From positions 1,088,001-1,152,000 of the forward strand of contig CBDANF010000002.1 of NCBI GenBank assembly GCA_965197475.1: 64,000 nt of DNA. The letters are read 5' to 3'. The stretch comes from Candidatus Poribacteria bacterium (GTDB lineage: Bacteria > Poribacteria > WGA-4E > WGA-3G). The notes under the pieces are model-generated. The model searched no databases. It had not been told where the DNA came from and was given only the letters and a program-made list of their open reading frames with translations. Of this stretch, positions 4,453 to 60,540 are shown one piece after another. Made by a program: the position numbers and the translations under genes. Numbering within the stretch: the first letter of the stretch is position 1; every line of letters starts with the position of its first letter.

Positions 4453-4904
4453 GTGTGCAACAAATGACGAAAACGCCCAAAATTGTCCGAATCTCAAAAA
4501 AAATTTGACATTTTTTGAGACTTACAAGTATAATATATGTACGTTAGGTAAAAGAAGACGATACGTGTGACATGGTTTGTAATAAATAACGTTGTTGACT
4601 ATATTTTTGCATAGGGAGATTTATTTACAGAAAAAATTAAACTGCTTCCAACTAAAGAAACTGGCTCATGTAAAGAATGAGTGCTAATGAAAAAGTTAAA
4701 CCCATGTGGCCACTGCGTTCATTGAAAACAACAGCACACATTCTTATACATGAGCGAAGAAACTTTTTATTGTCTTTGCGGGTGCTGCTGTTTTGTGTAA
4801 CACGCAAGCGAATGAACACAATACAGAATCCACCCGCTTATCCAAACATTGGAGATTACCACCTGCCCACAACGCAGGAAACCACCAATAAAGGAGAAAC
4901 GGAT

Positions 4905-6381
4905 ATGATGACATTCATAAAAGACTATTGGAAATCTTCTCTACTCGGTGCACTTGGCGCACTCGTGTTACTCTATATCGGACTTTTTATTTACGATGGA
5001 CTGACCCCGAGCGCAACACAAGAAGTAGTAGATACAGACACCCACAACGCCGCAAAACCACCTCCATCCGGTGCAAGACTTGCCGCGCGTATCTACCCCT
5101 CGAATCAAACGCGTGCGTACCAAGACAAATACCCGCCAAAACCGTGCACTGAAGAACATTGGACCTATCCTCCCCATTACATGTGCCATTCCTGCACCAC
5201 CACCACTCCCAACAGATGTCAAGACGCGCCTTATACAGCTACGGCGGAAAATGGTTGTTGCAGGAACATATTACGAGATACGAGATGGTGAAAAAGTTAT
5301 AACTGAGGCAGCATACAAAAGAAGGTATGACGTTCTCGTCGGCGATATGGAACCAGAGGATGCTGTCAACTTCCTTGAAACACACAGAATCTATAACCCC
5401 ATCATTTTGGACAAACTGGAACCTCGCCGTGCCATTGACTACTTCTATAAGGTGATGGTGCCTCAGAAAGAGAGAGAAGCTTACGCAAGAGGTGTTCTTG
5501 CCAGAGCCCCAGACAACCCGGATGCCCAAATGGTGCTGCTAAGTGCAGAACCGGATAACGCGACAGCGGCTGCGGGATACCGTAATATTGTCGCGAAGGA
5601 TCCTGAGAACTACCGTGCACGCAACGCATTAGGATACCGACTGCATTACGATCATCCAGAGGAGGCAATTCAGCACCTAAAGAAAGCGAACAACTTCAAC
5701 TCTGCAATCGGGTTTTTTAGTCTGGGATTGGCGTACGAACGACTCGGTGATGTCAAAACCGCATGGCTCTACTACAGAAAGCAGCAAACGATAAAGAACG
5801 GTGATCTCGTTGAAATACACAAACGGGCGATTGAAATGGGCAACCCGTTGTATAAGCCAATTTCGCAAACATCTTCCCCGATACCAGAATCCGATGCGAC
5901 ACCATTAGATATCGGGACATCACCACACGAAGAAACGTTCACTCCGGTGGCAGAAGAAACCCCTTGGTTACCGGAACTCTCATCCCAGGAACGCCACCCA
6001 TCGGAAAATCAACTGACAGACAAGGATAGCCAAAAAGCCACACGTGCAGAAGCCGTACGTGCAGAATTTCAACGACAGCAAGCCGCCGCACAACAGGAGC
6101 TTGACGATTTCCTGAAATGGGCGGAAAGCATCATGAATGCGGAAGATACTAATAACCTTGATGACTTCCTATCCAAGGAATTTGCGGCACACCTCAACGG
6201 CGGTGATGCACAATTTGCCCCGGAACGCACTGTCCGTGCCTACGAAATGATTGAACGGTACGGTCCTAAAGAGGGTTTACAACGGCTTAAGGAAAAGGAC
6301 CCTGAACTTGCGGAACAGATGGAACGTCTCATTGAAGCAAAACAACCATCTCGCCGTAATAACTCGCAAAACAGAAAATGA
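4905..6381 (+). pseudogene. membrane-anchored TPR protein, frameshifted; paralog of the array at 46.5-55.1 kb
   Basis: AAGGAG RBS, ATG 4905 and the TM helix lie in the 4677 frame; the TPR body lies in the 5071 frame, which has stops at 5026 and 5029. Shares DN...AGYRN.V...P...HPEEA with the array copies. Confidence 0.75.
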
Positions 6382-6440
6382 AGAATGTCCCAGTGTTTTA
6401 GATTTAACCATAAACCCATCATAGAAAAAAGGAGATTCAA

Positions 6441-8144
6441 ATGAGATTTACATGTATTTTAATCGGCATCTTGTGCCTTCTATGCCTTTTTAACCATGGA
6501 AACACCACCCTGGATGCACAGCAAACAACATCCATCCAGATCGAACAACCATATCTTGACCCAAATTGGCGGCCGGAAGCGGGCTACTCACTGACTTTTG
6601 AGATAAGAGTCACCGTGCCTGCTGATTTCTCCAGTGGGACGCTGATCGCAGAACTCCAGAATGTGACTCATTATGCAGGTAAAAGTGGAAATGTGACTGA
6701 CCCAGATGACAGAGTCGTGGACGGAGAGATTTCCGCAGCCGCAGATCTAAGACTATCTCAAACTACGGGTTGGTCGGGGAGCGAAAGTCAGCTCAGCCAC
6801 ACCCTCAGCGGAACGACAACGACGCAGACGATGACTCTGCAAGTTGACTGTGAAGACTACGCTGCCTATGGCGAATTAGTATTGACTGCATCCGGATCCG
6901 ACGGCGCATCCACCCCGGTTACCTACACATCCAACACGGTTACCGTAAAAATACCCAGAGATGAAAACGGCAATAAAATTGCCGATGGCTGGCAAAACGA
7001 CGGAGCCAAGAACTACGGACACGATGACGATAATGATAGCGGGCCAGCTTCCAATTCCAATGACGGTGATGGCATCACCGTCATTGATGAATACAGAGGA
7101 CTTACTCTCAACGGCACATGGACAGCTACCGATCCCAATGGGTGGGATATTTTTGTCCAACTTAGTTCTACTCTCACTGATCCCACTGATCCCACTGATC
7201 CCACTGACACCGGATATAGCACCGATAAAGCAGATGCTTTACCCATGACCGTCCATGATGTGTCGCCAATGCTGGTAGATTGCCTCGAAGGGGCTGTCTA
7301 TTCTTCTGGAATCGGAAGTCACGAGGTTTGCGCCATTAGACTTATTGCATACTCCGGAGAGGATTTTGGAGGTTGTGATTCTGCTACTTCAGCAGGATGT
7401 ATGTATGGGGGACCTCCCAGCATTTACTCAACTGGGTACATCAACCTAAATGTAATACAAAGGGGGATTAAATCCTATAGCGACGACATGGGTATAACTA
7501 TCAATAAAACCGATTATGTAAATGCTGTCATTGCACATGAAATCGGGCACGCTGTTAATCTTGGCCACTGTCCGAATATTGACTGTCCAGACTGTTTTGT
7601 GTGGGGATTAAATGATTGGCCTTCGCAATATGTAACGCAATTTGCTGCGCATCATGATTCAGACTACGATTTAGTACCCAACCCCGGCGGATATCATCCT
7701 CGACAGACTGAATATGGTGGCACACTTCCCGATAGAGGATATAGTAGTGAAAGAGGAGTACATATCCGACAAATCGAAGATATTAATGGGGACGGTGTTA
7801 TCAATATTTTGGACCTAAACGCAGTTGCATCAAAATATAATACTAATTTGTTCGACAAAGATTACAACATTCTTATGGATGTCAACAATGACGAAAGCAT
7901 TAATATTTTAGATTTGGTGCAGGTTGCATCGGCATTTGGTACAGCTTCCGAATTTCCACATCTACCTGAAGACGTTAATGATGACCGTGTTGTCAATATT
8001 TTGGACCTAATCATCGTTGCGTCAAACTTCGGCGAGAGCGGGACACATGTTGGAGATATTAACTGTGACGGCACCGTTGATATTTTAGATTTGGTGCGGG
8101 TCACAGCGGTATTTGGGAGTACGGTTCTCGCCCCTGAAGAATAG
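6441..8144 (+). CDS. secreted zinc metallopeptidase (HEIGHAVNLGH) with C-terminal dockerin type I repeats
   Basis: Signal peptide, HExxHxxxxxH motif, four DxNxDxxxxILDL repeats. Confidence 0.8.
   Translation: MRFTCILIGILCLLCLFNHGNTTLDAQQTTSIQIEQPYLDPNWRPEAGYSLTFEIRVTVPADFSSGTLIAELQNVTHYAGKSGNVTDPDDRVVDGEISAAADLRLSQTTGWSGSESQLSHTLSGTTTTQTMTLQVDCEDYAAYGELVLTASGSDGASTPVTYTSNTVTVKIPRDENGNKIADGWQNDGAKNYGHDDDNDSGPASNSNDGDGITVIDEYRGLTLNGTWTATDPNGWDIFVQLSSTLTDPTDPTDPTDTGYSTDKADALPMTVHDVSPMLVDCLEGAVYSSGIGSHEVCAIRLIAYSGEDFGGCDSATSAGCMYGGPPSIYSTGYINLNVIQRGIKSYSDDMGITINKTDYVNAVIAHEIGHAVNLGHCPNIDCPDCFVWGLNDWPSQYVTQFAAHHDSDYDLVPNPGGYHPRQTEYGGTLPDRGYSSERGVHIRQIEDINGDGVINILDLNAVASKYNTNLFDKDYNILMDVNNDESINILDLVQVASAFGTASEFPHLPEDVNDDRVVNILDLIIVASNFGESGTHVGDINCDGTVDILDLVRVTAVFGSTVLAPEE
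7176..7209 (+). repeat. 9-bp tandem repeat (cactgatcc) encoding TDPTDPTDPTD
   Basis: About 4 units visible in-frame. Confidence 0.8.
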
Positions 8145-8163: not shown

Positions 8164-8423
8164 TTGTCTGAATCTCGGATTGTACGGATTTCACGGAGGA
8201 CGCGGATTTTCTCAATTGCGATGTATACCTATCAGGACGGACGCATTCCCCCTTGATAAGGGGGTTAAAAAGTCGCTATTTCAGTGATTTAACCCCCTCC
8301 CCCACACGCTATTCGCTATGGGGACCCTTCCTTGTTATCAAGGGGACTTTAAGAGGAAGTGCGTAAGTTCTACCTATAATCCGCGAAATCTGCGTCATCC
8401 GTGAAAATCCGCGATTCAGACAA
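8164..8423. mobile_element. MITE-like element family B (ttgtctgaatc.cggatt...aatccgcgattcagacaa) with a nested family A MITE
   Basis: Terminal inverted repeats; related copies at about 53561-53782 and 55365-55586, and a half copy at about 8597-8632. Confidence 0.65.
8233..8372. mobile_element. MITE family A
   Basis: TIR caggacggacgca/tgcgtaagttcta; 5-bp TSD cctat. Confidence 0.85.
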
Positions 8424-8662: not shown

Positions 8663-8715
8663 CGTGCGCGGTGAGCGTTCTGTACTTTCTTATGAGTAAA
8701 AGGAGATGGACGACC

Positions 8716-14318: not shown

Positions 14319-14606
14319 GCTTACTATAGCACGTTTCGGCTTGCAATCATGCCGAAACCGACCTTACCGTGGTACCACTCCAATTCTCTCCCTCGTTTTC
14401 AGGAAATAAGGTTTAAAAACTCCCCGAAACAAGGAAAAGCACTCTTTGGGATGCGCTAACGGACATCACACCGACTAACCCTACTATATGTTCAGATTAG
14501 CAGCTCCGGGGCGACCTTCAGTCGTAGGAACTTGAGGCGACCTCTCAGCCTATGAGTCACCTTCTCTTGCAAGCCCGGAGGACCTACTCCTCCCCTTCAA
14601 CGCTTT
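14278..14606 (-). promoter_or_regulatory. T-box riboswitch leader of ilvBNC; probable Val specifier (GUC)
   Basis: Minus strand: AGCGTTGAAGGGGAGGAGTAG stem I start, AGAGA and GCTGAGA loops, GAAG-GTC-G (14515-14513), CCGTTA, T-box AATTGGAGTGGTACCACGG (14385-14367), terminator. Confidence 0.88.
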
Positions 14607-14916
14607 TTTGTAATCTATTTAATTTTATTATACACGCCGTTTTTGTTAACTACACGGGTGTTTCTGAAATCCTTTATTTTACGCTTTAATTATAACACAT
14701 CTAAATGAAAATGTCAAGAAAAAGGAGTACTTGCTCAGAGCCATTCAATTCTCCGGTAGTTGCTACCTTCTGATCACGGTCTTTCCACTGTAGGAGCGAC
14801 CTCCCGGTCGCGATTTAACCATCAAAATGCACAAAAACCGAAACAGAAAACCAATTGACGTAATTATTTACTTGTGCTATGTTTTAAACAGATTTTCTGT
14901 GCATGCGGAGGCAGAT

Positions 14917-32653: not shown

Positions 32654-32705
32654 GGGTGATTGTCCTTTCTAAGTTATGTTTAACTGTTATAACTTGTAAA
32701 CTGTT

Positions 32706-32857
32706 CAGGACGGACGCATTTCCTCTTAAAGTCCCCCTGATAAGGGGGACTTAGGGGGCGGGCCCCATAGCGATAGCGTCCGGGGAGATAAAATACCAAA
32801 ATTCTGCTTATTTAACCCCCCTAACCCCCCTTATCAAGGGGGAATGCGTCCGTCCTG
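32706..32857. mobile_element. MITE family A nested in the IS end
   Basis: TIR caggacggacgca/tgcgtccgtcctg; TSD ctgtt. Confidence 0.88.
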
Positions 32858-32952
32858 CTGTTATAACTTTAGGACAAACGCCCAATTTATTCAACTATTT
32901 TTGGCGAAGGTATTGAATCATAATTAAAGAAATATACAAGGAGGTTGCAAAA

Positions 32953-34493: not shown

Positions 34494-34743
34494 CTATACC
34501 CAACACAGCATCACTGCATTGTTACCCACAAACATGCTTTACGTACAGACATCATCTGCAGAAAATGCGAATAATACCAAATTGACGAGATTTGTCTTAT
34601 TTTTCTGGGCAGACAGCGCGTTTACATGGAGATTAAGTATTTAAATCGGTAATCCAAGGCCCGGTAGGTGCAGTTTCATGAAGTTTGCGCTACAAATGCA
34701 GATAAGGAATTTGACGGTAAACCGCACCAGTTTTCAAAATTGT

Positions 34744-34864
34744 CAGGACGGACGCATTCCCCCTTGATAAGGGGGGTTAGGGGGGTTAAATAAGCAGAAT
34801 TTTGGTATTTTAACCCCCTAACCCCCTTATCAGGGGGACTTTAAGAGAAAATGCGTAAGTCCTG
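34744..34864. mobile_element. MITE family A
   Basis: TIRs and TSD attgt. Confidence 0.88.
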
Positions 34865-35010
34865 ATTGTTATACCAAGCTCACGTTAAAACTAAATAATC
34901 CTGGGAAACTAAATTTCCGTATTGTGTGTATTCAACAATTATGCTATAATCCCACTATATCTGATAAATAATACCATTTCTAATTGACAAATTGTCATAA
35001 CATATTGTAG

Positions 35011-36839: not shown

Positions 36840-36907
36840 AATATAGAATTGCCACAGCAAATATGTTATACTGACATTGTAAACTGAGAGAAGTCTTATA
36901 GGAACTT

Positions 36908-37028
36908 CAGGACTTACGCAATGTGTTTAAAAGTCCCCTTGATAAGGGGGATTTAGGGGGTTAAAAGCACAAATTCTGCCTATTTAACCCCCCTAACCCC
37001 CTTATCAAGGGGGAATGCGTAAGTCCTG
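36908..37028. mobile_element. MITE family A
   Basis: TIR caggacttacgca; 6-bp flanking duplication gaactt. Confidence 0.88.
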
Positions 37029-37039
37029 GAACTTATTAA

Positions 37040-40075: not shown

Positions 40076-40096
40076 AAGACAAAGGAACAATCCGAC

Positions 40097-46488: not shown

Positions 46489-47637
46489 ATGAAAACTGTC
46501 TTGAAAGAAATCATAACAAGCCGAACTGTTATCGTAACCTTCATTGGCTGCCTGATATTTTTAGGCACACTACAACTATTAGTCGTCAAAGGGTGTAATA
46601 ATGAAGCTGGCAAAAGTATAATAAATGAGCTGCATCCATATATATCGGAAGCAGACCTACATTCAACCGAACCGATAGCAGTTCCGCCTTTTCCTGAACC
46701 CTCACTGGAGGGACTTGTGGCACAACTGAAAGCGGAACTTGGGCTTACCGATGCTGAGATAGCAGAGACTGCGGAACTTATAGCGAAAGAACGCGTACTT
46801 GACATCGTAAACTACATGGACAGTCGCCGTGGTCCCGAAGCGAGGCAGGTTGCGTGGGAACAACGTAAGCGACTCGCTGTTGCGAAACCTGAACTGCTAT
46901 GGACACCCGGCTTCGTCTTACCTCCCACACTTGATGTAATGGAGCTAAGAGATACATCTTTATATAACTACAACACGAAAGAAGGGGACGATTTTACAGT
47001 CACCGAAGAACAAAACCAAAGAATTTATGATCTGCGAGGCCAAGCACAGAGAGGTGAAATTTCTTCGGAAGAATATCGTAGAGAAGGCGGGAAAATTCAG
47101 GTGGAGAACCTTGATCCCCTAACCGCTGCGAAGCATTTTCTAACATATTCAAGCGTAGGTTCCATAAAGGCAGAACTTGGCATTGAATACGCCGAGCGCG
47201 CCATTAATGAAAACCCCAATTCTTTTGAGGCACATCATGTCTGGACATTCTGCAACCGCATGTTCTATTTGGGAACAGACAACGAGAAAGTGATAGCAGG
47301 GTACCGCAATCTGGTTGACAGATTCCCGAATTCCTCCATTGCACTTCAAGATCTGAGTTGGGCACTGTATCATTTGTATTCGGGCCCGGATTTGTATGCC
47401 TACCCAGAGGAGGCACTCGATGCTGTCCAACGCGCAATTCAACTTGATGACCGCATTGAACGAAATAATCAATTATTAGCTCGTAGTTATCATAAACTCG
47501 GGGAATATGAAAAAGCACTTGCTGTTTACCAAGGAATGTCCGAAGTATTCTATGGTCACGCAGGTGGGCTTCTCACACCTATTTATGAGCTTCAACGCAA
47601 AGTTTACAATCAACGGCAGCAACAACAAGGCGAATAA
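46489..47637 (+). CDS. membrane-anchored TPR protein, array copy 1
   Basis: N-terminal TM then KGC; TPR-like helices; near-identical to copies 2-4. Confidence 0.85.
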   Translation: MKTVLKEIITSRTVIVTFIGCLIFLGTLQLLVVKGCNNEAGKSIINELHPYISEADLHSTEPIAVPPFPEPSLEGLVAQLKAELGLTDAEIAETAELIAKERVLDIVNYMDSRRGPEARQVAWEQRKRLAVAKPELLWTPGFVLPPTLDVMELRDTSLYNYNTKEGDDFTVTEEQNQRIYDLRGQAQRGEISSEEYRREGGKIQVENLDPLTAAKHFLTYSSVGSIKAELGIEYAERAINENPNSFEAHHVWTFCNRMFYLGTDNEKVIAGYRNLVDRFPNSSIALQDLSWALYHLYSGPDLYAYPEEALDAVQRAIQLDDRIERNNQLLARSYHKLGEYEKALAVYQGMSEVFYGHAGGLLTPIYELQRKVYNQRQQQQGE

Positions 47638-47676
47638 TGTCAAAGAGAAACAGAAACCGTAACAATCAGGAAAGTG

Positions 47677-47811
47677 TAGTGCTTTGTCAAGTTTATATTT
47701 ATGGGTACAAGCCGCGATTAGAAGATCGCTTCTACAGAACCTGAAAAGTAGGAAGGAACTCCGATTCCCGACTATGTCACGACTCACCATTTGAAAGTGG
47801 ACATAACAGTA
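47677..47811. repeat. imperfect inverted-repeat element with REP (also about 51634-51768)
   Basis: tagtgctttgtcaagttt / aaagtggacataacagta ends. Confidence 0.45.
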
Positions 47812-47955
47812 GAGGTTTTTAATACTAACCGCCACTGCCACTACAATATCTTTTATATTATTACAAAAAGGAATTTAAACATGCCAAAAACTATAACTTT
47901 ACGCAATAAGTAGTTTTGGACTTGCAAAAAACATGTGAAAAAGTGTGATAAACCC

Positions 47956-47984
47956 TTGTGTAGACAAGGTTTATATGGTATAAT
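47956..47984 (+). promoter_or_regulatory. sigma70-type promoter of the transposase
   Basis: TTGTGT-17 bp-TATAAT with extended TG. Confidence 0.65.
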
Positions 47985-47991
47985 ATAGATA

Positions 47992-48063
47992 AGAAAAAAG
48001 GGAGGTTGTAGCCTCCCAATTAACCCAAAAAGCAGAGTTGCTTTCTGAAGGTTCTAATCTTAT
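47992..48063 (-). ncRNA. candidate antisense sRNA in the IS1595 leader
   Basis: Minus-strand promoter TTGCTT-18-(TGA)TATAAT (48098-48069) and terminator gggaggctacaacctccc-tttttt. Confidence 0.55.
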
Positions 48064-48121
48064 CTGATATTATATCAGAAATCCGTCAGAAAAAGCAACT
48101 CCTATTTCAAGGAGTTATCTG

Positions 48122-49003
48122 ATGGATTTAATCAAGGTCATGGAACGTTTCCCCGATCAAGAGAGTTGTATTGCACATTTAGAGAAGATTCGTTGGCGAG
48201 GTAAACCTGTGTGTCCGCATTGTGAAAGCGATCATATAGGAGAACGGACAGAAACAGAAATCGGTCGTATCGGTCGTTGGAACTGCCACGAGTGCCAAGT
48301 GAGTTTCAAGGTGACGTGCAGGTCGGTGTTTCACGGGACAAAGATAGCGTTACAGAAGTGGTTTTTGGCTATTTCGTTGATAACGAATGCGAAGAAAAGT
48401 TTGTCAAGGCATCAACTGGCGCGCGATTTAGACTTGAATCAAAAGACAGCATGGTTTATGATGGCACGTATTCGTGCTGAAATGGCAAAGAAAGGCGGGG
48501 CTTTACTACAAGGTATCATTGAAGCAGATGAGACCTATATTGGCGGTAAACCTCGTAAAAAGAACAAACGTGAAGATGATGAACCACATAAACGTGGCAG
48601 AGGAACGGAGAAAACTGCTATAATAGGAGCAGTGCAACGTGGGGGTAGGGTTGTCGCACAGGTGGCACATAACCTCACAGGACGCACTATCCTTGAGTTT
48701 ATTCGGAGTGCTGTAAACCTAAAGGACTCGGAACTAATAACCGATGAGTATCAGGCTTACAACGCTATTGGAAAGGAAATGAAGCACGCTGTTATCAACC
48801 ACAAGGTGCAGTTTGCTGATGGTGATACACATACAAACACGATTGAAGGGTTCTGGTCACTACTCAAACGGGCTTGGTATGGACAGCATCACCATTATCA
48901 GACAGGATACACACCGCTGTATGTGGCGGAAGCGTGCTATAAGTATAACTATAGGAGCGTTGACAGCTTGTTTGTCAAGTTTGTCAACGAAAGTATGTTG
49001 TGA
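48122..49003 (+). CDS. IS1595-family transposase
   Basis: CPHC..CHEC zinc ribbon, EADETY, TDE, NTIEGFW. Confidence 0.95.
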   Translation: MDLIKVMERFPDQESCIAHLEKIRWRGKPVCPHCESDHIGERTETEIGRIGRWNCHECQVSFKVTCRSVFHGTKIALQKWFLAISLITNAKKSLSRHQLARDLDLNQKTAWFMMARIRAEMAKKGGALLQGIIEADETYIGGKPRKKNKREDDEPHKRGRGTEKTAIIGAVQRGGRVVAQVAHNLTGRTILEFIRSAVNLKDSELITDEYQAYNAIGKEMKHAVINHKVQFADGDTHTNTIEGFWSLLKRAWYGQHHHYQTGYTPLYVAEACYKYNYRSVDSLFVKFVNESML

Positions 49004-49233
49004 GAGAAGTTAGAGATTCTATGGCAGATGTATTGAGTCAGCACGGACTAGATAAGAAAAGTGATAGTCCTTCAAGATCTGCTCTTTCTGAAACAGAATT
49101 CTTTGAAGAATTTTGTATCGTTGCTGAATATTTCATCGATGCATTTCACAGGTATGTTGAAGAATTCAGGACTGCCGATAATGTTCCTCAGACAAAACAT
49201 TCTGGGAAAACAAGTGAGCTTGACACCGGTTGA
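49000..49233 (+). CDS. small hypothetical IS passenger
   Basis: GTG overlaps the transposase stop. Confidence 0.4.
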   Translation: MREVRDSMADVLSQHGLDKKSDSPSRSALSETEFFEEFCIVAEYFIDAFHRYVEEFRTADNVPQTKHSGKTSELDTG

Positions 49234-49438
49234 GTGCGTCCATAAAATTATCAAAAGTGGTTAACATTTCCTCTTTTGATTTGAATTCTAACACCATTTT
49301 TGCGCGTTCTTTGTGATGTATGTAGATGTAGAAACTACTTTTTGCGCTTATGTGGCGTTCTTCAGTTTCAATTCTCTGACACATAGCCAAGTTTAATGCT
49401 TTTCTTTCATTATTTTCGGTATATTCAACGAAAAACAT
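49166..49438 (-). CDS. hypothetical IS passenger
   Basis: AAGGAG RBS upstream; 90 aa. Confidence 0.6.
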   Translation of the reverse strand: MFFVEYTENNERKALNLAMCQRIETEERHISAKSSFYIYIHHKERAKMVLEFKSKEEMLTTFDNFMDALNRCQAHLFSQNVLSEEHYRQS

Positions 49439-49493
49439 GATTTTAATCTCCTTTGGAGTTAGAGGGGACAGGGTCCCCTCGTTGTCAGAGTTG

Positions 49494-49868
49494 TTATAAG
49501 TATTCGGGGATTACTTCTGACACGCTGGTTATTGCTACAGCAATAGATAGTTCACTCTTTAAGCTCCATGTCGAGCATATAAGTGAGACAACAATCATAC
49601 GTAAACCAAAAGGTTCAGATGGTTCACCAAGAGTTGCTGTATGCAAAATGCATTCGGTAAATTCATCGCGCTTTTCATTGGGCACACCAAAGGTGAGAGC
49701 AAACCCTCTAATAATCGTTTCATACAATTGCTTTTTGGGAGTATCAGAAGGGTTTAGATCACGCAAGGTTTCATAATGTGTCAATGCAAGACGAGGGAAT
49801 TCCCTTATAAGCCACTTATCTCTATCTTTGTGTTTCCTGCGTTCTTTCCAATCTGAAAACAAAGACAT
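49494..49868 (-). CDS. hypothetical IS passenger
   Basis: AAGGAG RBS upstream; 124 aa. Confidence 0.65.
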   Translation of the reverse strand: MSLFSDWKERRKHKDRDKWLIREFPRLALTHYETLRDLNPSDTPKKQLYETIIRGFALTFGVPNEKRDEFTECILHTATLGEPSEPFGLRMIVVSLICSTWSLKSELSIAVAITSVSEVIPEYL

Positions 49869-49988
49869 AATAGTCTCCTTGTGTAAAAGGGAGTGGTTTC
49901 AGCGATGTAATAAGCTAAATGCAAAGCGATTATTATGTCGCTGATTCTATAAATATGATGTTAACTGTTTGGTTCACGAGAACTATAC

Positions 49989-50073
49989 ACACGAAACTTT
50001 CCAATGTTACTTGGTTATGGTAGAGACCGCGCCTTGCGACGCGGGTAACATTCTCTACCAAAGTTTTCGTGAT
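49989..50073 (-). ncRNA. candidate structured RNA leader
   Basis: Nested stems with a GCAA tetraloop just downstream of TTGACA-17-TATCCT (50108-50080). Confidence 0.5.
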
Positions 50074-50203
50074 GTTAATAGGATACTATACTGGCAGGAT
50101 TTTGTCAAGTAAAAAATTTGAGAAAAATTTTCAAGTCCAAAACTACTCATTGCGTAACTTTATGTCTAACACTTGTCACTGAGTAGAAAATGGATATATC
50201 TTA

Positions 50204-50326
50204 CAGGACGGACGCATTCCCCCTTGATAAGGGGGGTTAGGGGGGTTAAATAAGCAGAATTTTGGTATTTTAACCCCCTAAATCCCCCTTATCAGCGGGA
50301 CTTTAAGAGGAAATGCGTCCGTCCTG
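50204..50326. mobile_element. MITE family A
   Basis: TIRs and TSD tctta. Confidence 0.88.
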
Positions 50327-50445
50327 TCTTAGTTTTCATAGAAACACGATAAATGCTGGGACAACCGCAGGGTGCTAATTTTTCACGTGATAAAAAAGAG
50401 AAACGTGGTATAATTTACTAAAATCAAAAATGCGGAGGAATTCCC

Positions 50446-51594
50446 ATGAAAACCTTCTTGAAAGAAATCATAATGAGTCGTCCTGTGATTATTACCTTCA
50501 TTGGCTGCCTACTCTTTTTCGGATCGCTTCTACTTTTTGTAATCAAAGGGTGTAATAATGAAGCTGGCAAGAGTATAATAAACGAGATCCATCCATATAT
50601 ATCGGAAGCAGACCTACGTTCGACCGAACCGATAGCAGTTGCGCCTTTTCCTGAACCCTCACTGGAGGGACTTGTGGCACAACTGAAAGCGGAACTTGGG
50701 CTTACCGATGCTGAGATAGCAGAGACTGCGGAACTTATAGCGAAAGAACGCGAACTTGACATCGTAAACTACATGGACAGTCGCCGTGGCGTAGCAGCGA
50801 GGCAGACTGCGTGGGAACAACGTAAGCGACTCGCTGTTGCGAAACCTGAACTTCTATGGACCCCCGGTTTCGTCTTACCGCCCGCACTTGATGTGATGGA
50901 GTTAAGAGATATATCTTTATATAACTACGATACGAAAGCGGGGGACGATTTCACAATTACCTCAGAACAACGGCAAAGAATGTCTAACCTGCGAAGCCAA
51001 GCACAGAGAGGTGAAATTTCTGATGAAGAATATAGTAGAGAAGCTGGGAAAATTGCGGTTGAGAACCTTGATCCCTTAACTGCTGCAAAGCATTTTCTAA
51101 CGCATGCAGGCGTAGGTTCCATAGATGCTGAACTCGGTATTGAATACGCCGAGCGCGCCATTAATGAAAACCCCGATTCCTTTGAGGCACATCATGTCTG
51201 GACATTCTGCAACCGCATGTTCTATTTGGGAACAGACAACGAGAAAGTGATAGCAGGGTACCGCAATCTGGTTGACAGATTCCCGAATTCCTCCATTGCA
51301 CTTCAAGATCTGAGTTGGGCACTGTATCATTTGTATTCGGGCCCGGATTTGTATGCCTACCCAGAGGAGGCACTCGATGCTGTCCAACGCGCAATTCAAC
51401 TTGATGACCGCATTGAACGAAATAATCAATTATTAGCTCGTAGTTATCATAAACTCGGGGAATATGAAAAAGCACTTGCTGTTTACCAAGGAATGTCCGA
51501 AGTATTCTATGGTCGCGCAGGTGGGCTTCTCACACCTATTTATGAGCTTCAACGCAAAGTTTACAATCAACGGCAGCAACAACAAGGCGAATAA
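50446..51594 (+). CDS. membrane-anchored TPR protein, array copy 2
   Basis: 382 aa paralog; GGAGG RBS. Confidence 0.85.
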   Translation: MKTFLKEIIMSRPVIITFIGCLLFFGSLLLFVIKGCNNEAGKSIINEIHPYISEADLRSTEPIAVAPFPEPSLEGLVAQLKAELGLTDAEIAETAELIAKERELDIVNYMDSRRGVAARQTAWEQRKRLAVAKPELLWTPGFVLPPALDVMELRDISLYNYDTKAGDDFTITSEQRQRMSNLRSQAQRGEISDEEYSREAGKIAVENLDPLTAAKHFLTHAGVGSIDAELGIEYAERAINENPDSFEAHHVWTFCNRMFYLGTDNEKVIAGYRNLVDRFPNSSIALQDLSWALYHLYSGPDLYAYPEEALDAVQRAIQLDDRIERNNQLLARSYHKLGEYEKALAVYQGMSEVFYGRAGGLLTPIYELQRKVYNQRQQQQGE

Positions 51595-51837
51595 TGTCAA
51601 AGAGAAACAGAAACCGTAACAATCAGGAAAGTGTAGTGCTTTGTCAAGTTTATATTTATGGGTATAAGCCGCGATTAGAAGATCGCTTCTACAGAACCTG
51701 AAAAGTAGGAGGGAACTCCGATTCCCGACTATGTCACGACTCACCATTTGAAAGTGGACATAACAGTAGAGGTTTTTAATACTAACCGCCACTGCCACTA
51801 CAATATCTTTTATATTATTACAAAAAGGAATTTAAAC

Positions 51838-51882
51838 ATGCCAAAAACTATAACTTTATGTCTAACACTTGTCACTGAGTAG
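51838..51882 (+). pseudogene. 5' stub of a peptidase gene (MPKTITLCLTLVTE*)
   Basis: RBS and start resemble the peptidase start MSKTIIFCLTF at 55650; the same stub at 47881 is split by IS1595. Confidence 0.65.
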
Positions 51883-51899
51883 AAAATGGATATATCTTA

Positions 51900-52023
51900 C
51901 AGGACGGACGCATTCCCCCTTGATAAGGGGGGTTAGGGGGGTTAAAAGTCCTTATTTTTGGTGTTTTTAACCCCCTAAATCCCCCTTATCAGGGGGACTT
52001 TAAGAGGAAATGCGTCCGTCCTG
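51900..52023. mobile_element. MITE family A
   Basis: TIRs and TSD tctta; same site as 50204, duplicated with the array. Confidence 0.88.
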
Positions 52024-52142
52024 TCTTAGTTTTCATAGAAACACGATAAATGCTGGGACAACCGCAGGGTGCTAATTTTTCACGTGATAAAAAAGAGAAA
52101 CGTGGTATAATTTACTAAAATCAAAAATGCGGAGGAATTCCC

Positions 52143-53291
52143 ATGAAAACTGTCTTGAAAGAAATCATAATGAGCCGTCCTGTTATTATTACCTTCATTG
52201 GCTGCCTACTCTTTTTCGGTTCACTGCTGCTTTTTGTAATCAAAGGGTGTAATAATGAAGCTGGCAAAAGTATAATAAACGAGATCCATCCCTATATATC
52301 GGAAGCAGACCTTAACTCAACTGAACCGATAGCAGTTGCGCCTTTTCCTGAACCCTCACTGGAGGGACTTGTGGCACAACTGAAAGCGGAACTTGGGCTT
52401 ACCGATGCGGAGATAGCAGCGGATGCGGAACTTATAGCGAAAGAACGCGAACTTGACATCGTAAACTACATGGACAGTCGCCGTGGTTCCGAAGCGAGGC
52501 AGGCTGCGTGGGAACAACGTAAGCGACTCGCTGTTGCGAAACCTGAACTGCTATGGACACCCGGCTTCGTCTTACCGCCCGCACTTGATGTAATGGAGTT
52601 AAAAGATATATCTTTATATAACTACGATACGAAACAAGGTGAAGATTTTACAATCACCTCAGAACAACAGCAAAGAATCTATGAACAGCGAGACAAAGCA
52701 AGGAGAGATGAAATTTCTTCGGAAGAATCTCGTAGAGAAGCTGGGAAAATTCGGGTGGAGAACCTTGATCCCTTAACTGCTGCGAAGCATTTTCTAACAT
52801 ATTCAGGCGTAGGTTCCGTAAACGCAGAACTCGGTATTGAATACGCCGAGCGCGCCATTAATGAAAACCCCGATTCCTTTGAGGCACATCATGTCTGGAC
52901 ATTCTGCAACCGCATGTTCTATTTGGGAACAGACAACGAGAAAGTGATAGCAGGGTACCGCAATCTGGTTGACAGATTCCCGAATTCCTCCATTGCACTT
53001 CAAGATCTGAGTTGGGCACTGTATCATTTGTATTCGGGCCCGGATTTGTATGCCTACCCAGAGGAGGCACTCGATGCTGTCCAACGCGCAATTCAACTTG
53101 ATGACCGCATTGAACGAAATAATCAATTATTAGCTCGTTGTTATCATAATCTTGGCGAGTATGAAAAAGCACTTGCTGTTTACCAAGGGATGTCCGAAGT
53201 ATACTATGGTCATGGTGGGGGTCTTCTCACACCTATTTATCAGCTGCAACGCAAAGTTTACAATCAACGGCAGCAACAACAAGGCGAATAA
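52143..53291 (+). CDS. membrane-anchored TPR protein, array copy 3
   Basis: 382 aa paralog. Confidence 0.85.
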   Translation: MKTVLKEIIMSRPVIITFIGCLLFFGSLLLFVIKGCNNEAGKSIINEIHPYISEADLNSTEPIAVAPFPEPSLEGLVAQLKAELGLTDAEIAADAELIAKERELDIVNYMDSRRGSEARQAAWEQRKRLAVAKPELLWTPGFVLPPALDVMELKDISLYNYDTKQGEDFTITSEQQQRIYEQRDKARRDEISSEESRREAGKIRVENLDPLTAAKHFLTYSGVGSVNAELGIEYAERAINENPDSFEAHHVWTFCNRMFYLGTDNEKVIAGYRNLVDRFPNSSIALQDLSWALYHLYSGPDLYAYPEEALDAVQRAIQLDDRIERNNQLLARCYHNLGEYEKALAVYQGMSEVYYGHGGGLLTPIYQLQRKVYNQRQQQQGE

Positions 53292-53340
53292 TGTCAAAGA
53301 GAAACAGAAACCGTAACAATCAGGGACTGACGCTGCAAAA

Positions 53341-53813
53341 TAGACATTATAACGTTTTCAGGACGGACGCATTTTTTCTTAAAGTCCCACTGATAAGGGG
53401 GATTTAGGGGGTTAAAAACACCAAAATAAGGACTTTTAACCCCCCTAACCCCCCTTATCAAGGGGGAATGCGTAAGTCCTGGTTTTAATTGTGAGTTATT
53501 ATTGGTCTATGGTCCAATCTTATGTTCGTCCGTTGGGTAGATTAGGTGTCGCGCGCAACTTTCTGAATCGCGGATTATCGCGGATTACACCAAATCAACG
53601 GTATGAATGCCTTTTTGGCATTCCCCGGATTTCACGGATTATTGGACACTGGTGACAACAAGTCGTTTTCATAATGTGATGTCAATAACAGAAGCCGTCC
53701 ATCCATCCGTTGAATGTGCGGATACAAGACTCATAAAATCCGCGCAATCCGATAAATCCGCGTAAATCCGCGATTCTGACAACACAACGCCGATTAAATC
53801 ATTATAATGTCTA
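53341..53813. mobile_element. composite nested repeat element containing MITE A (53359-53481, TSD gtttt) and family B
   Basis: Inverted ends tagacattataa / ttataatgtcta; matching copy at 55145-55617. Confidence 0.7.
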
Positions 53814-53845
53814 ATCTTTATGTTACCACAAAAAGGAGTTTAATC

Positions 53846-53902
53846 ATGTCAAAAACTATAATTTTTTGTTTAACTTTCTTACTTATCGGTATTTTGCTAT
53901 AA
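53846..53902 (+). pseudogene. 5' stub of the peptidase gene (MSKTIIFCLTFLLIGILL*)
   Basis: First 45 nt identical to 55650-55694, then joins the TPR promoter sequence. Confidence 0.8.
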
Positions 53903-53970
53903 TATCCCATACGCATTCACAAACATTGAAGTTATCACCTCATCTGTACCACAAAAAAGGAGAAATTCAC

Positions 53971-55095
53971 ATGAAAACTGTCTTGAAAGAAATCATAATG
54001 AGTCGTCCTGTTATTATTACCTTCATTGGCTGCCTACTCTTTTTCGGTTCACTGCTGCTTTTTGTAATCAAAGGGTGTAATAATGAAGCTGGCAAGAGTA
54101 TAATAAACGAGATCCATCCCTATATATCGGAAGCAGACCTTAACTCAACCGAACCGATAGCAGTTCCGCCTTTTCCTGAACCCTCACTGGAGGGACTTGT
54201 GGCACAACTGAAAGCGGAACTTGGGCTTACCGATGCGGAGATAGCAGCGGATGCGGAACTTATAGCGAAAGAACGCGAACTTGACATCGTAAACTACATG
54301 GACAGTCGCCGTGGTTCCGAAGCGAGGCAGGCTGCGTGGGAACAACGTAAGCGACTCGCTGTTGCGAAACCTGAACTGCTATGGACACCCGGCTTCGTCT
54401 TACCGCCCGCACTTGATGTAATGGAGTTAAGAGATATATCTTTATATAACTACGATACGAAACAAGGTGAAGATTTTACAATTACCTCAGAACAACGGCA
54501 AAGAATGTCTAACCTGCGAAACCAAGCACAGAGAGGTGAAATTTCTGATGAAGAATATAGTAGAGAAGCTGGGAAAATTCGGGTTGAGAACCTTGATCCC
54601 TTAACTGCTGCGAAGTATTTTCTAACATATTCAAGCGTAGGTTCCATAAAAGCAGAACTCGGTATTGAATACGCCGAGCGCGCCATTAATGAAAACCCCA
54701 ATTCCTTTGAGGCACATCATGTCTGGGCACTCTGCAACCGCGAGTATTATTTTCAAACAGACAATGAGAAAACAATAGAGGGGTTCCGCAATCTGGTTAA
54801 CAGATTTCCGAACTCCTCCATCGCACTTCAAGAACTTTGTTTGATAACCCGTTTCACCCACCCGGAGGAGGCACTTGATGCCGTCCAACGCGCAATTCAA
54901 CTTGATGACCGCATTGAACGAAATAATGAATTATTAGCTCATTGTTATCATAAACTCGGGGAATATGAGAAGGCACTTGCTGTTTACCAAGGAATGTCTG
55001 AAGTATACTATGGACACGGTGGTGGTCTTCTCACCTTTATTTATCAACTTCAACGCAAAGTTTACAATCAGCGGCAGCAACAACAAGGCGAATAA
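53971..55095 (+). CDS. membrane-anchored TPR protein, array copy 4 (374 aa, divergent TPR segment)
   Basis: AAGGAG RBS before ATG 53971; 8 aa shorter than copies 1-3. Confidence 0.85.
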   Translation: MKTVLKEIIMSRPVIITFIGCLLFFGSLLLFVIKGCNNEAGKSIINEIHPYISEADLNSTEPIAVPPFPEPSLEGLVAQLKAELGLTDAEIAADAELIAKERELDIVNYMDSRRGSEARQAAWEQRKRLAVAKPELLWTPGFVLPPALDVMELRDISLYNYDTKQGEDFTITSEQRQRMSNLRNQAQRGEISDEEYSREAGKIRVENLDPLTAAKYFLTYSSVGSIKAELGIEYAERAINENPNSFEAHHVWALCNREYYFQTDNEKTIEGFRNLVNRFPNSSIALQELCLITRFTHPEEALDAVQRAIQLDDRIERNNELLAHCYHKLGEYEKALAVYQGMSEVYYGHGGGLLTFIYQLQRKVYNQRQQQQGE

Positions 55096-55144: not shown

Positions 55145-55617
55145 TAGACATTATAACGTTTTCAGGACGGACGCATTTTTTCTTAAAGTCCCACTGATAA
55201 GGGGGATTTAGGGGGTTAAAAACACCAAAATAAGGACTTTTAACCCCCCTAACCCCCCTTATCAAGGGGGAATGCGTAAGTCCTGGTTTTAATTGTGAGT
55301 TATTATTGGTCTATGGTCCAATCTTATGTTCGTCCGTTGGGTAGATTAGGTGTCGCGCGCAACTTTCTGAATCGCGGATTATCGCGGATTACACCAAATC
55401 AACGGTATGAATGCCTTTTTGGCATTCCCCGGATTTCACGGATTATTGGACACTGGTGACAACAAGTCGTTTTCATAATGTGATGTCAATAACAGAAGCC
55501 GTCCATCCATCCGTTGAATGTGCGGATACAAGACTCATAAAATCCGCGCAATCCGATAAATCCGCGTAAATCCGCGATTCTGACAACACAACGCCGATTA
55601 AATCATTATAATGTCTA
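55145..55617. mobile_element. composite nested repeat element with MITE A (55163-55285)
   Basis: Copy of 53341-53813. Confidence 0.7.
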
Positions 55618-55649
55618 ATCTTTATGTTACCACAAAAAGGAGTTTAATC

Positions 55650-58619
55650 ATGTCAAAAACTATAATTTTTTGTTTAACTTTCTTACTTATCGGTGTCTTT
55701 GCCGCAACGGACATCGCACAAGCACAGACGTTGACGATAAGCCCTAAAAATCAAGATACATACAACGACTGGGAACCAACGAATGGGGGCACCCTCACTT
55801 TTACTGTCAACGTTAGCAACTTATCTGCTGCGAATATCACTGGCGGTAAAATCAGTTTTGACTTTGAGACGGTGTCGAGGTGGCATGGGATCTGTATGAA
55901 TGACGGAGAATGTAAAGCCCCAGAAGACCCAGACCTCTACTTTGACAGCACTCAGACGACCTATACTGCGCCACGCTGGCAACAATCGAGCGAATCTTCA
56001 GACAGCAGCACTTCACCAAGAGTAGATGCTGTGTGGAATTCGAGTGATAATCTCAATAACTTTTCAATTGATGTCAAAGTACTATGCAGGGATTACGGTG
56101 CATTCGGTATCCTTCGGGTAAAACTCTATAAAAGCACCTCATCTTCATCCTATGTATTTGTAAAGGAAGTTGGAATCGTCATCCCGAAAGATGACAATGG
56201 CAATTATATGGCAGACAAAAGCGACACAAAATATGGGTATACAAACCCAGCCATTGATGCTGAATCCGGTCCTGATGATGGATCAGGTGTTGAGGAAAAT
56301 AACAACTATGGAGATGGACTCGTCGAATTTGAGGAATACCGTGGGGCTATGATAGACGGGGTGCATAAACGTCTCAAGCCAACGGAGAAAGACATTTTCG
56401 TCTATAGCCAGTTCACCACTTTAGGCATTGGTGATGCATCCAACTTGCCCAGCACGACCTTTAAAGTGCATGAGATACGGATACGTGAAACGAAAGATGA
56501 AGACGATGATCGAACGGTAAACTACAATTCTTTAGGCACCCCAACCCAGTTCGGTGCAGTGGATGCGTGGCGTGTGCAAAATACAAAGGCTCTCTGGATA
56601 ACTCCCACGTCTTCAGGTACCTACTTAGGAATAGTAAGTGCGGTTGCTGCGCCTCCTGATGTAGAATCAGTTAAAATCAATGAAACAAACATTAGAAATT
56701 ACCTTACCAGTATCCAGAACGGTACGCCCCGGACAAACCTAACAGCAAATCAGTTCATTCGTTTTGTTATCGGGCATGAAATGGGACATGGGGTAGCAGT
56801 TAACCATCCTTGGCACACACCCGTCCCTTCCGGTTCTTCTAATCCGCCTGTTGATGGTGGTTGGTATGGTTTTAGTGGTAATCTTTCGCATATACGCACT
56901 CCGAGTATAGTTGCGGCTTTGCTATCACATTTTGATAGTTATTGGAATGTCAATACGGCTCCAGCAAAATGGACGATACCTGTCAACAGCTATACGGATG
57001 ATTTGCCACTGGATAGTTCCGCATCAAGTTTTAAGTATCAGTACGGTTCTACTATTATGGATTATCCAATACCTTTTAGCGACATAACTGACGCGAATAA
57101 TAACACAATAGATAGAGAAGGTATTTTCCCCGCGTCAACTTTTCATAGTCTCCACAATTGGGAATATCAATTGCTGGGTGATGGTGTGGCATCTCAGGAA
57201 ACTGCTGAGTGGACACGTCGCACCGTTTCTGCGGATCCATCCAGCGAGGCAAACTTTGGAGATTCAGCCAATTCGGGTAATGGTGATAGCACTGATGGGA
57301 GTAATGGCGGTAGCACAGAAACTAATGGCGATAGCACAGAAACTAATGGTGATAGCACAGAAACTAATGGCGGTAGCACAGAAACTAATGGTGATAGCAC
57401 AGAAACTAATGGTGATAGCACAGAAACTACTAGTGATGGCACAGAAACTAATGGCGGTGGCACAAGCACTACACCGCCAGGTGCACCGAGAGATTTGCTC
57501 GTCTCATCAGAAGGTGATGGTCAGGTCAGTTTATCATGGACAGCCCCAACCGATACAGGGAGTTCTTCAATTGACAATTATGAATATCAGTATAGCGAAA
57601 GCAGCCCCGAGAGTTGGAGCGGTTGGATATCAACGGGTAACGATGGAAACTCTATAACTGGTACGAGTGTAGATGTTACGGGGTTGACCAACGATACGGA
57701 ATACAAGTTCCAGGTGCGCGCCGTGAGTAGCGCGGGAGAGAGCCCAGAATCAGACACAGTGACCGGAAGCCCCCAAGCACCGGTCATAATAACAGTGCCC
57801 GCAGCCCCTGCTTGGAGTGATATACCGGATCCGTATAACCTTACCGTTGGTGATTATTTTTGTTTAGACTTGAGTAGTTATGTGTCTGGGAGCCCGACTA
57901 TAGCCAGGACTTTGGGTAGGATACCTGCTGGATTATCCCTTAGTAATGGTGTCTTGAGTGGAACGGTGACAACGGTTGAAACTCGGTATCTTAAGTTTAC
58001 GGCGACCAATCTCGGAGGTTCCGTACAAAGTGAGTGGGTTGATATCGTTGTAACTGCCGCCTCTACGCCAACGGTGACAGTGCCTGTTTGGAGCGATATA
58101 CCGGATCCGTACAATCTTATCGTTGGTGATTATTTTAGTTTAGACTTGAATAGTTATGTGTCTGGGAGCCTGACTATAACCAAGAACGCTGGTGCTATAC
58201 CTGCGGGGTTGTCACTGAGTAATGGTGTCCTGAGTGGCACGGTCACAACCGTTGAAAGTCGGGGTCTCCAATTTACTGCGACAAATACCGAAGGGTCCGC
58301 ACAGAGCGAATGGGTCCAAATTGTCGTTACTGCCGCCTCTACGCCAACGGTGACAGCCCCTGTTTGGAGTGATATACCGGATCCGTACACCCTTACTGTT
58401 GGTGATTATTTTAGTTTAGACTTGAATAGTTATGTGACGGGAAGTCTGACTATAACCAAGAACGCTGGTGCTATACCTGCGGGGTTGTCACTGAGTAATG
58501 GCATCCTGAATGGCACGGTGACAACCGTTGAAGATCGCAGTATCCAATTTACTGCGACCAATTCTGCAGGTTCCGCACAAAGTGAATGGGTTAATATCAC
58601 CGTTCAAGCTGCTCAATGA
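55650..58619 (+). CDS. secreted zinc metallopeptidase (HEMGHGVAVNH) with STETNG linker, FN3 domain and three Ig-like repeats
   Basis: AAGGAG RBS, signal peptide ending AQA, STIMDY Met-turn candidate, LSWTAP..GLTN.TEY.F.VRAV, three P.WSDIPDPY...PAGLSLSNG units. Confidence 0.83.
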   Translation: MSKTIIFCLTFLLIGVFAATDIAQAQTLTISPKNQDTYNDWEPTNGGTLTFTVNVSNLSAANITGGKISFDFETVSRWHGICMNDGECKAPEDPDLYFDSTQTTYTAPRWQQSSESSDSSTSPRVDAVWNSSDNLNNFSIDVKVLCRDYGAFGILRVKLYKSTSSSSYVFVKEVGIVIPKDDNGNYMADKSDTKYGYTNPAIDAESGPDDGSGVEENNNYGDGLVEFEEYRGAMIDGVHKRLKPTEKDIFVYSQFTTLGIGDASNLPSTTFKVHEIRIRETKDEDDDRTVNYNSLGTPTQFGAVDAWRVQNTKALWITPTSSGTYLGIVSAVAAPPDVESVKINETNIRNYLTSIQNGTPRTNLTANQFIRFVIGHEMGHGVAVNHPWHTPVPSGSSNPPVDGGWYGFSGNLSHIRTPSIVAALLSHFDSYWNVNTAPAKWTIPVNSYTDDLPLDSSASSFKYQYGSTIMDYPIPFSDITDANNNTIDREGIFPASTFHSLHNWEYQLLGDGVASQETAEWTRRTVSADPSSEANFGDSANSGNGDSTDGSNGGSTETNGDSTETNGDSTETNGGSTETNGDSTETNGDSTETTSDGTETNGGGTSTTPPGAPRDLLVSSEGDGQVSLSWTAPTDTGSSSIDNYEYQYSESSPESWSGWISTGNDGNSITGTSVDVTGLTNDTEYKFQVRAVSSAGESPESDTVTGSPQAPVIITVPAAPAWSDIPDPYNLTVGDYFCLDLSSYVSGSPTIARTLGRIPAGLSLSNGVLSGTVTTVETRYLKFTATNLGGSVQSEWVDIVVTAASTPTVTVPVWSDIPDPYNLIVGDYFSLDLNSYVSGSLTITKNAGAIPAGLSLSNGVLSGTVTTVESRGLQFTATNTEGSAQSEWVQIVVTAASTPTVTAPVWSDIPDPYTLTVGDYFSLDLNSYVTGSLTITKNAGAIPAGLSLSNGILNGTVTTVEDRSIQFTATNSAGSAQSEWVNITVQAAQ
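57312..57458 (+). repeat. 21-bp tandem repeat encoding STETNG(D/G)
   Basis: agcacagaaactaatgg.g.t, 5 near-perfect units plus 2 degenerate units. Confidence 0.9.
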
Positions 58620-60539: not shown

Positions 60540-60540
60540 T

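Follow-up and report, generated by a model that had tools for sequence, protein, structure and literature searches.

Layout of the Locus

The window analyzed here is a stretch of 64,000 nucleotides (C2:1088001-1152000) from the genome of a Candidatus Poribacteria bacterium, which comprises 5.7 Mb in three contigs and is called G000 below; where the sequencing runs containing this stretch carry a readable label, they are sponge metagenomes. Near the beginning of the window lie two genes on the forward strand, a gene for a tetratricopeptide repeat (TPR) protein and, behind it, a gene for a predicted secreted zinc peptidase (Table 1). An earlier note on this DNA had taken them for a second, diverged copy of a TPR–peptidase pairing that also occurs at a TPR gene array further downstream, and had read the retained gene order as a sign of functional coupling. 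Its reading of the TPR gene has to be corrected in one respect: the gene begins at 4905, and a frameshift at 5070/5071 puts anchor and body into different frames.

As to the claimed likeness of the 5′ leaders, 5 of 5000 random 150-mers from the genome and 2 of 5000 shuffles equalled the match between the leader motif and its counterpart in the array; for the equivalent stretch in front of the first array copy the match was weaker (99 of 5000). The motif is possibly a decayed upstream small open reading frame (ORF), and an Rfam search at this position matched no RNA family. Inspection of a paralog by eye had suggested a remnant of a small Cys-rich peptide gene, but a profile of 13 such peptides misses the leader, while it recovers 20 small Cys-rich peptide copies in the genome.

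Table 1. Features of the studied locus and of the TPR gene array in the window (positions in the window; Ig, immunoglobulin; IS, insertion sequence).
Feature	Position	Strand	Remarks
Leader motif	4843..4864	+	Matches 53920-53940
5′ part of TPR gene: start codon, hydrophobic anchor, start of Pro-rich linker	4905..5070	+	Frame stops at 5291; continuous with body in C3 paralogs
Frameshift site	5066..5075	+	His/Trp motif of several intact paralogs deleted here
TPR gene body	5071..6381	+	Separate frame from anchor
Helical/TPR domain	~5305-5835	+	AlphaFold model
Linker	~5869-6015	+	AlphaFold model, low confidence
C-terminal helical domain	~6022-6342	+	AlphaFold model
Peptidase gene	6441..8144	+	Signal-peptide-like start to dockerin repeats
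Ig/cohesin-like beta domain	~6516-6956	+	
Asp-rich segment		+	
Metzincin-fold domain	~7134-7685	+	
Zinc motif HEIGHAVNLGH (HExxHxxxxxH)	7536..7568	+	Sequence, column conservation
Met-turn position, Val in this copy	7599..7601	+	Alignment
Dockerin repeats	~7776-8120	+	
Array of four B-type TPR genes	46489..55095	+	82-92% identical, lipobox-like Cys
IS1595 transposase	48122-49003		Interrupts the B-type array
352-nt duplicate			Ends in peptidase 5′ stub; before array copy 4
Second window peptidase	55611..58619	+	Same core, then low-complexity linker, Fn3, putative Ig repeats

Predicted Structure of the Two Proteins

The peptidase is predicted to be a secreted zinc protease of metzincin fold with an Ig-like domain. 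Its model (predicted local distance difference test, pLDDT, 91.6) consists of an Ig/cohesin-like sandwich (residues 1-147), the Asp-rich segment and a metzincin-fold domain. The catalytic domain of the model (residues 207-394) resembled ADAM8 (Z 10.2, root-mean-square deviation (rmsd) 3.8, 152 aligned residues) and archaemetzincin (Z 9.1, rmsd 4.0, 149 aligned); several ADAM and MMP chains matched it at Z 8.5-10, and sequence matches in the PDB had E-values of 6e-5 to 3e-4. In the family alignment of 115 rows the H, E, H and H of the zinc motif are present in 105, 104, 107 and 97 rows, position 8 of the motif is Asn in 55 (among them the studied copy) and Gly in 23 rows, and the Met-turn carries Met in 89 of the 96 filled rows and Val in 2. 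From the studied copy this Met is absent. The protein passes no curated peptidase cut-off in Pfam or NCBIfam, where the family is without a curated model; the archaemetzincin M54 cut-offs were missed with 20.1 against 24.4 bits (Pfam) and 19.9 against 145 (NCBIfam). The dockerin repeats were recognized by Pfam Dockerin_1 (E 2e-11). Among the paralogs the tails vary (dockerin, Fn3, putative Ig or Cys-rich), the core of Ig-like domain and peptidase being constant; this core has 3256 representatives (50% identity clusters, E 0.001).

The model of the TPR body (AlphaFold, pLDDT 82.3) shows a TPR-type helical domain that a disordered linker connects to the C-terminal helical domain. Pfam TPR matches in the body were weak and below cut-off. 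In fold searches the best 50 matches were TPR-type proteins, the C-terminal helical domain having barely been tested alone; no lipase-foldase or SRPBCC row was among the top matches, which excludes neither. Across the family the partners measure 300-560 residues and fall into two types, judged by pattern: A-type proteins have an N-terminal hydrophobic helix that looks uncleaved, and most B-type proteins have a lipobox-like Cys and are without the C-terminal domain. The TPR protein is therefore predicted to be membrane-anchored, by the N-terminal helix (A type) or by a lipid anchor (B type). As a side observation, a weak match to the C-terminal helical domain lies in two operons of secreted and anchored proteins (C3:193780-197524 and C3:1343867-1346791).

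Homology of the Two Window Loci

The protein motifs on which the earlier note had based its comparison were all found in the translations, and the homology that it proposed was confirmed for both genes. The TPR body (5071-6381) matched the array copy at 53971-55095 in BLASTP with an E-value of 1e-7 (22% identity over 189 residues), and profile-profile comparison of both TPR types gave a probability of 99.1 (E 1e-18, 133 columns). This similarity goes beyond that of generic TPRs: a profile of 34 A-type rows from other genomes found the four array copies of the window at 59-74 bits. Among 41,127 genome ORFs it scored all 17 listed B copies at 34-74 bits and the best generic TPR at 33.6, so that the weakest B copies hardly exceed the generic background. 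The studied TPR protein is thus homologous to the array copies, but carries a C-terminal helical domain that these lack. The two peptidases are likewise related beyond the HExxH motif (E 1e-20, 25% over 403 residues), including the N-terminal domain and the Asp-rich blocks, and an iterated peptidase profile converged on 22 of the 41,127 ORFs, all of them family members.

Recurrence and Co-inheritance of the Pair

Adjacency was assessed in 40 regions around the best of 103 matches outside G000, in 20 regions of G000 and in the window. A family TPR gene was present at most 700 nt upstream of 59 of 63 peptidase 5′ ends, that is 41 of 43 in other genomes, for whose selection only the peptidase was used, and in G000 18 of 20. 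In three of the four exceptions the ORF immediately upstream is IS-like, judging by its text; in the fourth the TPR gene lies downstream. The pairing is hence recurrent as proposed; the studied locus is not its second instance, as the genome has about 20 such loci. Of 40 genomes of the genus, 24 contain the peptidase; among 151 genomes drawn from the phylum it was detected in 38, which belong to 9 of 22 genera.

The trees of the two proteins were compared with 41 complete pairs of the 43, two with short TPR pieces being dropped. Distance matrices of TPR and peptidase were correlated (Mantel rho 0.54), a value that none of 5000 free permutations and none of 5000 within genomes attained, and the FastTree trees share deep clades, the B-type clade having a support of 99 in both. 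TPR protein and peptidase have been inherited as a unit and have diversified into matched subfamilies; the congruence shows co-inheritance, not binding. The functional coupling suggested earlier, for which two loci alone would be insufficient, is upheld by the upstream position and the congruent trees, but the original outline overlooked both the asymmetry between the partners described below and the broken TPR copy at the locus itself.

Some loci depart from the usual arrangement or extend it. At L068 (genome G016) the order is reversed, peptidase then TPR, and TPR genes of the same subfamily are orphans in G002, G022 and G052. Two pairs in G000 seem to have been split by rearrangement between IS copies (C3:3704334 and C3:3718048; C2:639449 and C3:3932033). 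Directly 3′ of the studied peptidase gene a WD40 protein with a dockerin-like tail is encoded (window 8671-10821); the order peptidase then WD40 recurs in the dockerin subfamily (L033, L049, L051, L052, L053, L055), and TPR–peptidase–WD40 also in L102.

Surplus of TPR Genes

In G000, 37 ORFs of the TPR family stand against 13 full-length peptidases. These TPR genes are followed by a full peptidase in 11 cases, by another TPR gene in 10, by a broken peptidase in 8 and by nothing in 8. Across the 40 genomes of the genus, 24 had both partners, 9 the TPR only, none the peptidase only and 7 neither; match totals were 249 for TPR and 125 for peptidase, TPR matches being more numerous in 29 genomes and fewer in 2. 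Three of the TPR-only genomes are single contigs (G020, G021 and G022; 93-95% complete). At 20 further TPR sites in other genomes, picked to include peptidase-free genomes, no peptidase piece was present at 18 and stubs or broken copies at 2, and no other secreted cargo was seen by eye directly behind the TPR gene.

Substitution rates indicate that orphan TPR genes are under continued purifying selection. At one site common to four genomes the ratio of nonsynonymous to synonymous substitutions (dN/dS) was 0.22-0.36 at dS 0.38-1.43, and B-type orphans had values of 0.18-0.24. For the four-copy array of the window dN/dS was 0.29-0.42.

The site between guaB and nuoI is a capture hot spot, where repeated guaB 3′ ends occur together with TPR genes and with stubs of peptidase and GspC genes. 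In G000 two contigs each hold a part of this site (C3:203300-211800, L038; C2:331558-349388, L031), and it was also seen in L061, L064, L076, L080 and L152. Nine extra guaB 3′ ends, 92-99% identical, lie between the array units, and several of them are joined to peptidase stubs at differing points. The simplest account would be that a relative's cassette was captured repeatedly, the resident peptidase being truncated and the resident TPR gene kept; an alternative for these arrays is an old tandem duplication. An orphan TPR with its stub in G000 matches an intact pair of G005 (60 and 49% identity), and G003 has four TPR genes and only a broken peptidase at the same site as the window array (L151). 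Many copies of the family are cut by IS elements.

Export and Accessory Genes

The genome has a single secretin and a single ATPase of a type II secretion system (T2SS), both in one cluster with the order gspE-F-G-H-I-J-K-L-?-D, and we infer that the protease is exported by this machine. The sole cluster (G000:C2:571644-585332, L092) has a PilM-like L and, marked by the question mark, one gene without assignment; a TPR–peptidase pair lies 3.5 kb away. No GspC match was obtained within the cluster; 12 dispersed GspC-like genes and 2 stubs are located elsewhere in the genome. In 60 loci examined, 18 GspC-like genes flank pairs, of which 10 match Pfam T2SSC (PF11356) weakly (best E 1e-5); 1 of the 5 genome matches to T2SSC passes the cut-off. 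A gene for a small Cys-rich membrane peptide precedes several pairs. At the studied locus neither a GspC-like gene nor a small Cys-rich peptide gene was detected.

Further loci with these accessory genes were noted. Small membrane peptides that contain Cys and Pro make up a family of about 20; their genes lie upstream of nine TPR or cassette genes and also at C3:1755696-1768468 and C2:1190415-1194507; six of these peptides form a tandem array away from any peptidase. L093 (C3:579679-583436, repeated at 586623-590368) has the same frame of small Cys peptide, anchored helical protein, secreted protein and GspC-like gene; its cargo differs, with a motif that looks M15-type by eye, its partner is no TPR protein, and no match was found in Pfam, NCBIfam or the PDB. 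At L094 (C3:335999-339970) unassigned secreted proteins stand beside anchored proteins in an operon whose last gene is GspC-like.

The Same Peptidase in Other Phyla

In a capped sample of 49 loci from other phyla no family TPR gene was found upstream of the peptidase. At 33 of them a conserved gene with a signal peptide lies directly downstream, its product having a beta-rich or Ig N-terminal part and TPRs; 13 of these 33 had seeded the profile, and 4 of the 16 loci without a match have less than 600 nt of sequence left. The loci with this exported Ig+TPR partner belong to Bacteroidota (many of them), Acidobacteriota, Planctomycetota, Gammaproteobacteria and others. The downstream family (L097-L144), hitherto undescribed, shows a signal peptide, a beta-rich domain and two TPRs, sometimes with Ig, MBG or dockerin tails, and in L121, L123, L132, L136 and L139 dockerin, Ig or MBG tails are on the TPR partner instead of the peptidase. 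An exported TPR partner for this peptidase appears to have been built separately in two forms.

State of the Studied Copy

The frameshift is natural, because its junction recurs in a paralog and in the contigs of two runs. The paralog at C2:588841 has the identical junction, and the C3 paralogs are continuous. Contigs of runs X1 and X9 cross 5066..5075 unchanged; those of X4 and X14 have five more bases and are in frame. An assembly error was ruled out as its cause, one of the two runs with the junction coming from another study (X1 may be the source sample). A recent origin of the lesion is probable, because dN/dS of the TPR body is still 0.23-0.28 (against five paralogs).

The locus is a mosaic. 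Its stretches 5000-5200, 6000-6200 and 6300-6700 are 97-100% identical to the C2:588k copy, whereas 5800-6000 is 98-99% identical to the C2:640k copy and 6900-7000 is 99% identical to the C3:3704k copy; this pattern suggests that dispersed copies have undergone gene conversion. As the anchor was lost by frameshift and the Met of the Met-turn has been lost as well, the copy at 4905-8144 is probably decaying, or its function is covered by intact paralogs. Contigs from RNA libraries (X9, X14) cover both genes in pieces; contigs cannot show transcription.

Inhibitor, Chaperone, or Subunit

The explanation that we prefer, at about an even chance, is that a secreted zinc protease is paired with a membrane-anchored TPR protein that acts as its cognate inhibitor or as an immunity protein; the arrays of orphans would then be stores of immunity genes. 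The protease would leave the cell through the single type II machine, in many loci with the help of the cassette-borne GspC-like protein. The TPR protein would bind it, keep it inactive in the envelope and also neutralize matching proteases of neighboring relatives in the sponge. Envelope proteins of competitors or the host matrix are candidate targets. Cells would gather and retain TPR genes after loss of the peptidase, a pattern seen in the genomes, presumably because cassettes of relatives were captured at fixed sites again and again. We favor immunity because in 40 genomes the enzyme never occurs without the partner, while the partner is hoarded without the enzyme, as has been described for immunity genes (PMC3482391), and inhibition because the potempins offer a tested precedent, their anchored inhibitors having genes upstream of those for the secreted peptidases.

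Several observations weigh against this explanation. Within the studied subfamily the TPR protein evolves more slowly than the peptidase (dN 0.05-0.14 against 0.23-0.45), and no TPR set had a pairwise dN/dS above 1, one pair reaching 1.0 at dS 0.08; an arms race is therefore not demonstrated. Two younger pairs of orphans are relaxed (dN/dS 0.65-0.66), and the low pairwise values of the others may average over a time when the orphans still had a partner. The TPR counts take in frameshift pieces, as the peptidase counts take in stubs. At C2:588841 and at the studied locus the peptidase ORF is intact but the TPR gene before it is frameshifted, which would need cover by paralogs (76-85% identical) or a weak enzyme. 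The fold of the partner is an all-helical TPR, unlike the small beta-barrel of potempins. Homology of the TPR partner in other phyla with the Poribacteria family did not emerge: a comparison covered 71 columns (probability 95.6), no family member was among the best 45 matches, and the partner was no closer to the family than generic TPRs. GspC-like neighbors and a transmembrane (TM) anchor fit a secretion chaperone equally well. Prediction of a complex of peptidase core and TPR body scored 0.00 in two runs, which says nothing either way.

Unlikely, in our judgment, is a role of the TPR protein as a dedicated membrane-tethered folding or export chaperone that hands the protease to the T2SS together with the cassette's GspC-like adaptor. 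Its slower evolution relative to the peptidase would suit such a role, as would the flanking of pairs by GspC-like genes in a genome whose one T2SS cluster is without a GspC match, and an anchor, a Pro-rich linker and a helical body beside a secreted enzyme are the defining pattern in the covered part of PMC4713064. A chaperone is useless without its client, yet TPR genes outnumber peptidases about 2:1 and are apparently kept under selection where no peptidase was found; moreover, the studied locus has no GspC-like gene, and a TPR partner is also present in Bacteroidota. Bacteroidota mostly lack type II secretion.

TPR protein and peptidase could also be the two permanent parts of one surface enzyme; the TPR protein would anchor the protease and select substrates, and spare TPRs would be exchangeable specificity subunits; NlpI-Prc and the fused BepA are analogues. 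We regard this as quite improbable. The tails on the TPR partner in other phyla are as expected for parts of one displayed complex, and arrays of diverged TPRs adjoin a single peptidase, but the 9 TPR-only genomes are left unexplained, and no fused form was found among the best 150 representatives or in a weak search of longer proteins.

Very improbable is that the TPR protein has a role of its own, for instance in contact with the sponge host, and stays with the peptidase mainly through block copying of the cassette: Poribacteria have many TPR proteins, for which a link with host interaction has been made (PMC3909097, covered in part), contact with the host has been proposed for eukaryote-like repeat proteins, selection on orphans fits an independent role and copies are mosaic and often IS-cut, but no genome among the 40 has the peptidase only, the deep subfamilies of both proteins match, and the same peptidase stands beside a separately built TPR partner in other phyla.

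A wider version of the inhibitor explanation, which we consider possible but doubtful, would be protease warfare among sponge Poribacteria, with an undescribed metzincin family, a T2SS whose GspC travels with the cargo, TPR immunity stockpiled as orphan arrays from rival strains, and a peptidase–TPR partnership that arose at least twice across phyla.

Other Features of the Window

A family of dispersed palindromic repeats is present in the window, also between the array units (8257-8303, 32694-32863, 34695-34866, 36896-37036, 39946-40080, 50155-50326, 51851-52023, 53347-53492, 55151-55296 and 60529-60608). A T-box leader (93.7 bits) was found at 14351-14609 on the reverse strand, upstream of an acetolactate synthase-ilvC operon. 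An ORF of 494 residues at 32953-34437 looks like a lipoprotein; it had no Pfam match and is unrelated to the TPR family.

Comparison With Known Systems

The papers cited below by PMC number were covered in part, and what is said of them applies to those parts. As in the KLIKK-peptidase/potempin system of Tannerella forsythia (PMC9890683), the peptidase genes lie directly downstream of genes for anchored proteins, there are several paralogous pairs per genome, and a lipobox-like Cys is found, here in the B-type partners, whose anchor is judged from the pattern. PotA protects surface proteins and is dispensable for secretion (PMC9890683). Potempins, however, are beta-barrels of 98-132 residues and their enzymes are secreted by type IX, whereas the partners described here are TPR proteins of 300-560 residues with orphan arrays. 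The metzincin of Listeria Mtz-Tim (PMC8235301) is likewise secreted, and its gene adjoins a lipoprotein gene; Tim differs in being TIMP-like and reportedly cleaved by the enzyme, and the system is a phage-derived single locus.

Polymorphic toxins and homogeneous polyimmunity loci (PMC3482391) share tandem partner paralogs, partner genes without an enzyme, stubs of displaced enzymes and strain variation at fixed sites. Classical polymorphic toxins carry an exchangeable C-terminal toxin domain on a constant trafficking N-terminus. Here, in contrast to those toxins, the catalytic domain is constant and the tails vary, and the partner is upstream; the covered passages of PMC3482391 have no TPR immunity protein for a metallopeptidase. 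CpaA-CpaB and LipA-LipB/Lif (PMC4713064), systems with a membrane-bound chaperone for type II secretion, resemble the pair in placing the enzyme (CpaA being a metallopeptidase) beside a partner with an N-terminal TM segment, with a T2SS present, but CpaB has been assigned an SRPBCC domain and is encoded downstream, whereas the partner here is modeled as a TPR protein, is encoded upstream and is in large surplus. The enzyme shares with adamalysin/ADAM, serralysin and archaemetzincin M54 metzincins the HExxHxxxxxH motif, at family level the Met-turn, and the ADAM8 fold match; it differs from them in scoring below every curated cut-off, in the prevalence of Asn over Gly at motif position 8 and in that an Ig-like domain and an Asp-rich segment always precede the catalytic domain.

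In the main texts of the open-licence literature searched, no description of the TPR–peptidase pair was found, and the covered part of Kamke 2014 (PMC3909097), which notes abundant TPR proteins, does not contain the words "peptidase" or "protease". The logic of an enzyme with hoarded immunity is already known; the two families and their combination did not appear in the open literature searched. If the inhibitor explanation is true, TPR proteins join the known inhibitors of bacterial metalloproteases, and for an abundant sponge symbiont that has not been cultured the pair is the first concrete candidate for a conflict system. Some "eukaryote-like" TPR proteins in sponge symbionts, for which host contact is the usual interpretation, would then be a defence against fellow bacteria. 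As dozens of cognate and non-cognate pairs occur naturally, specificity lends itself to direct tests in vitro.

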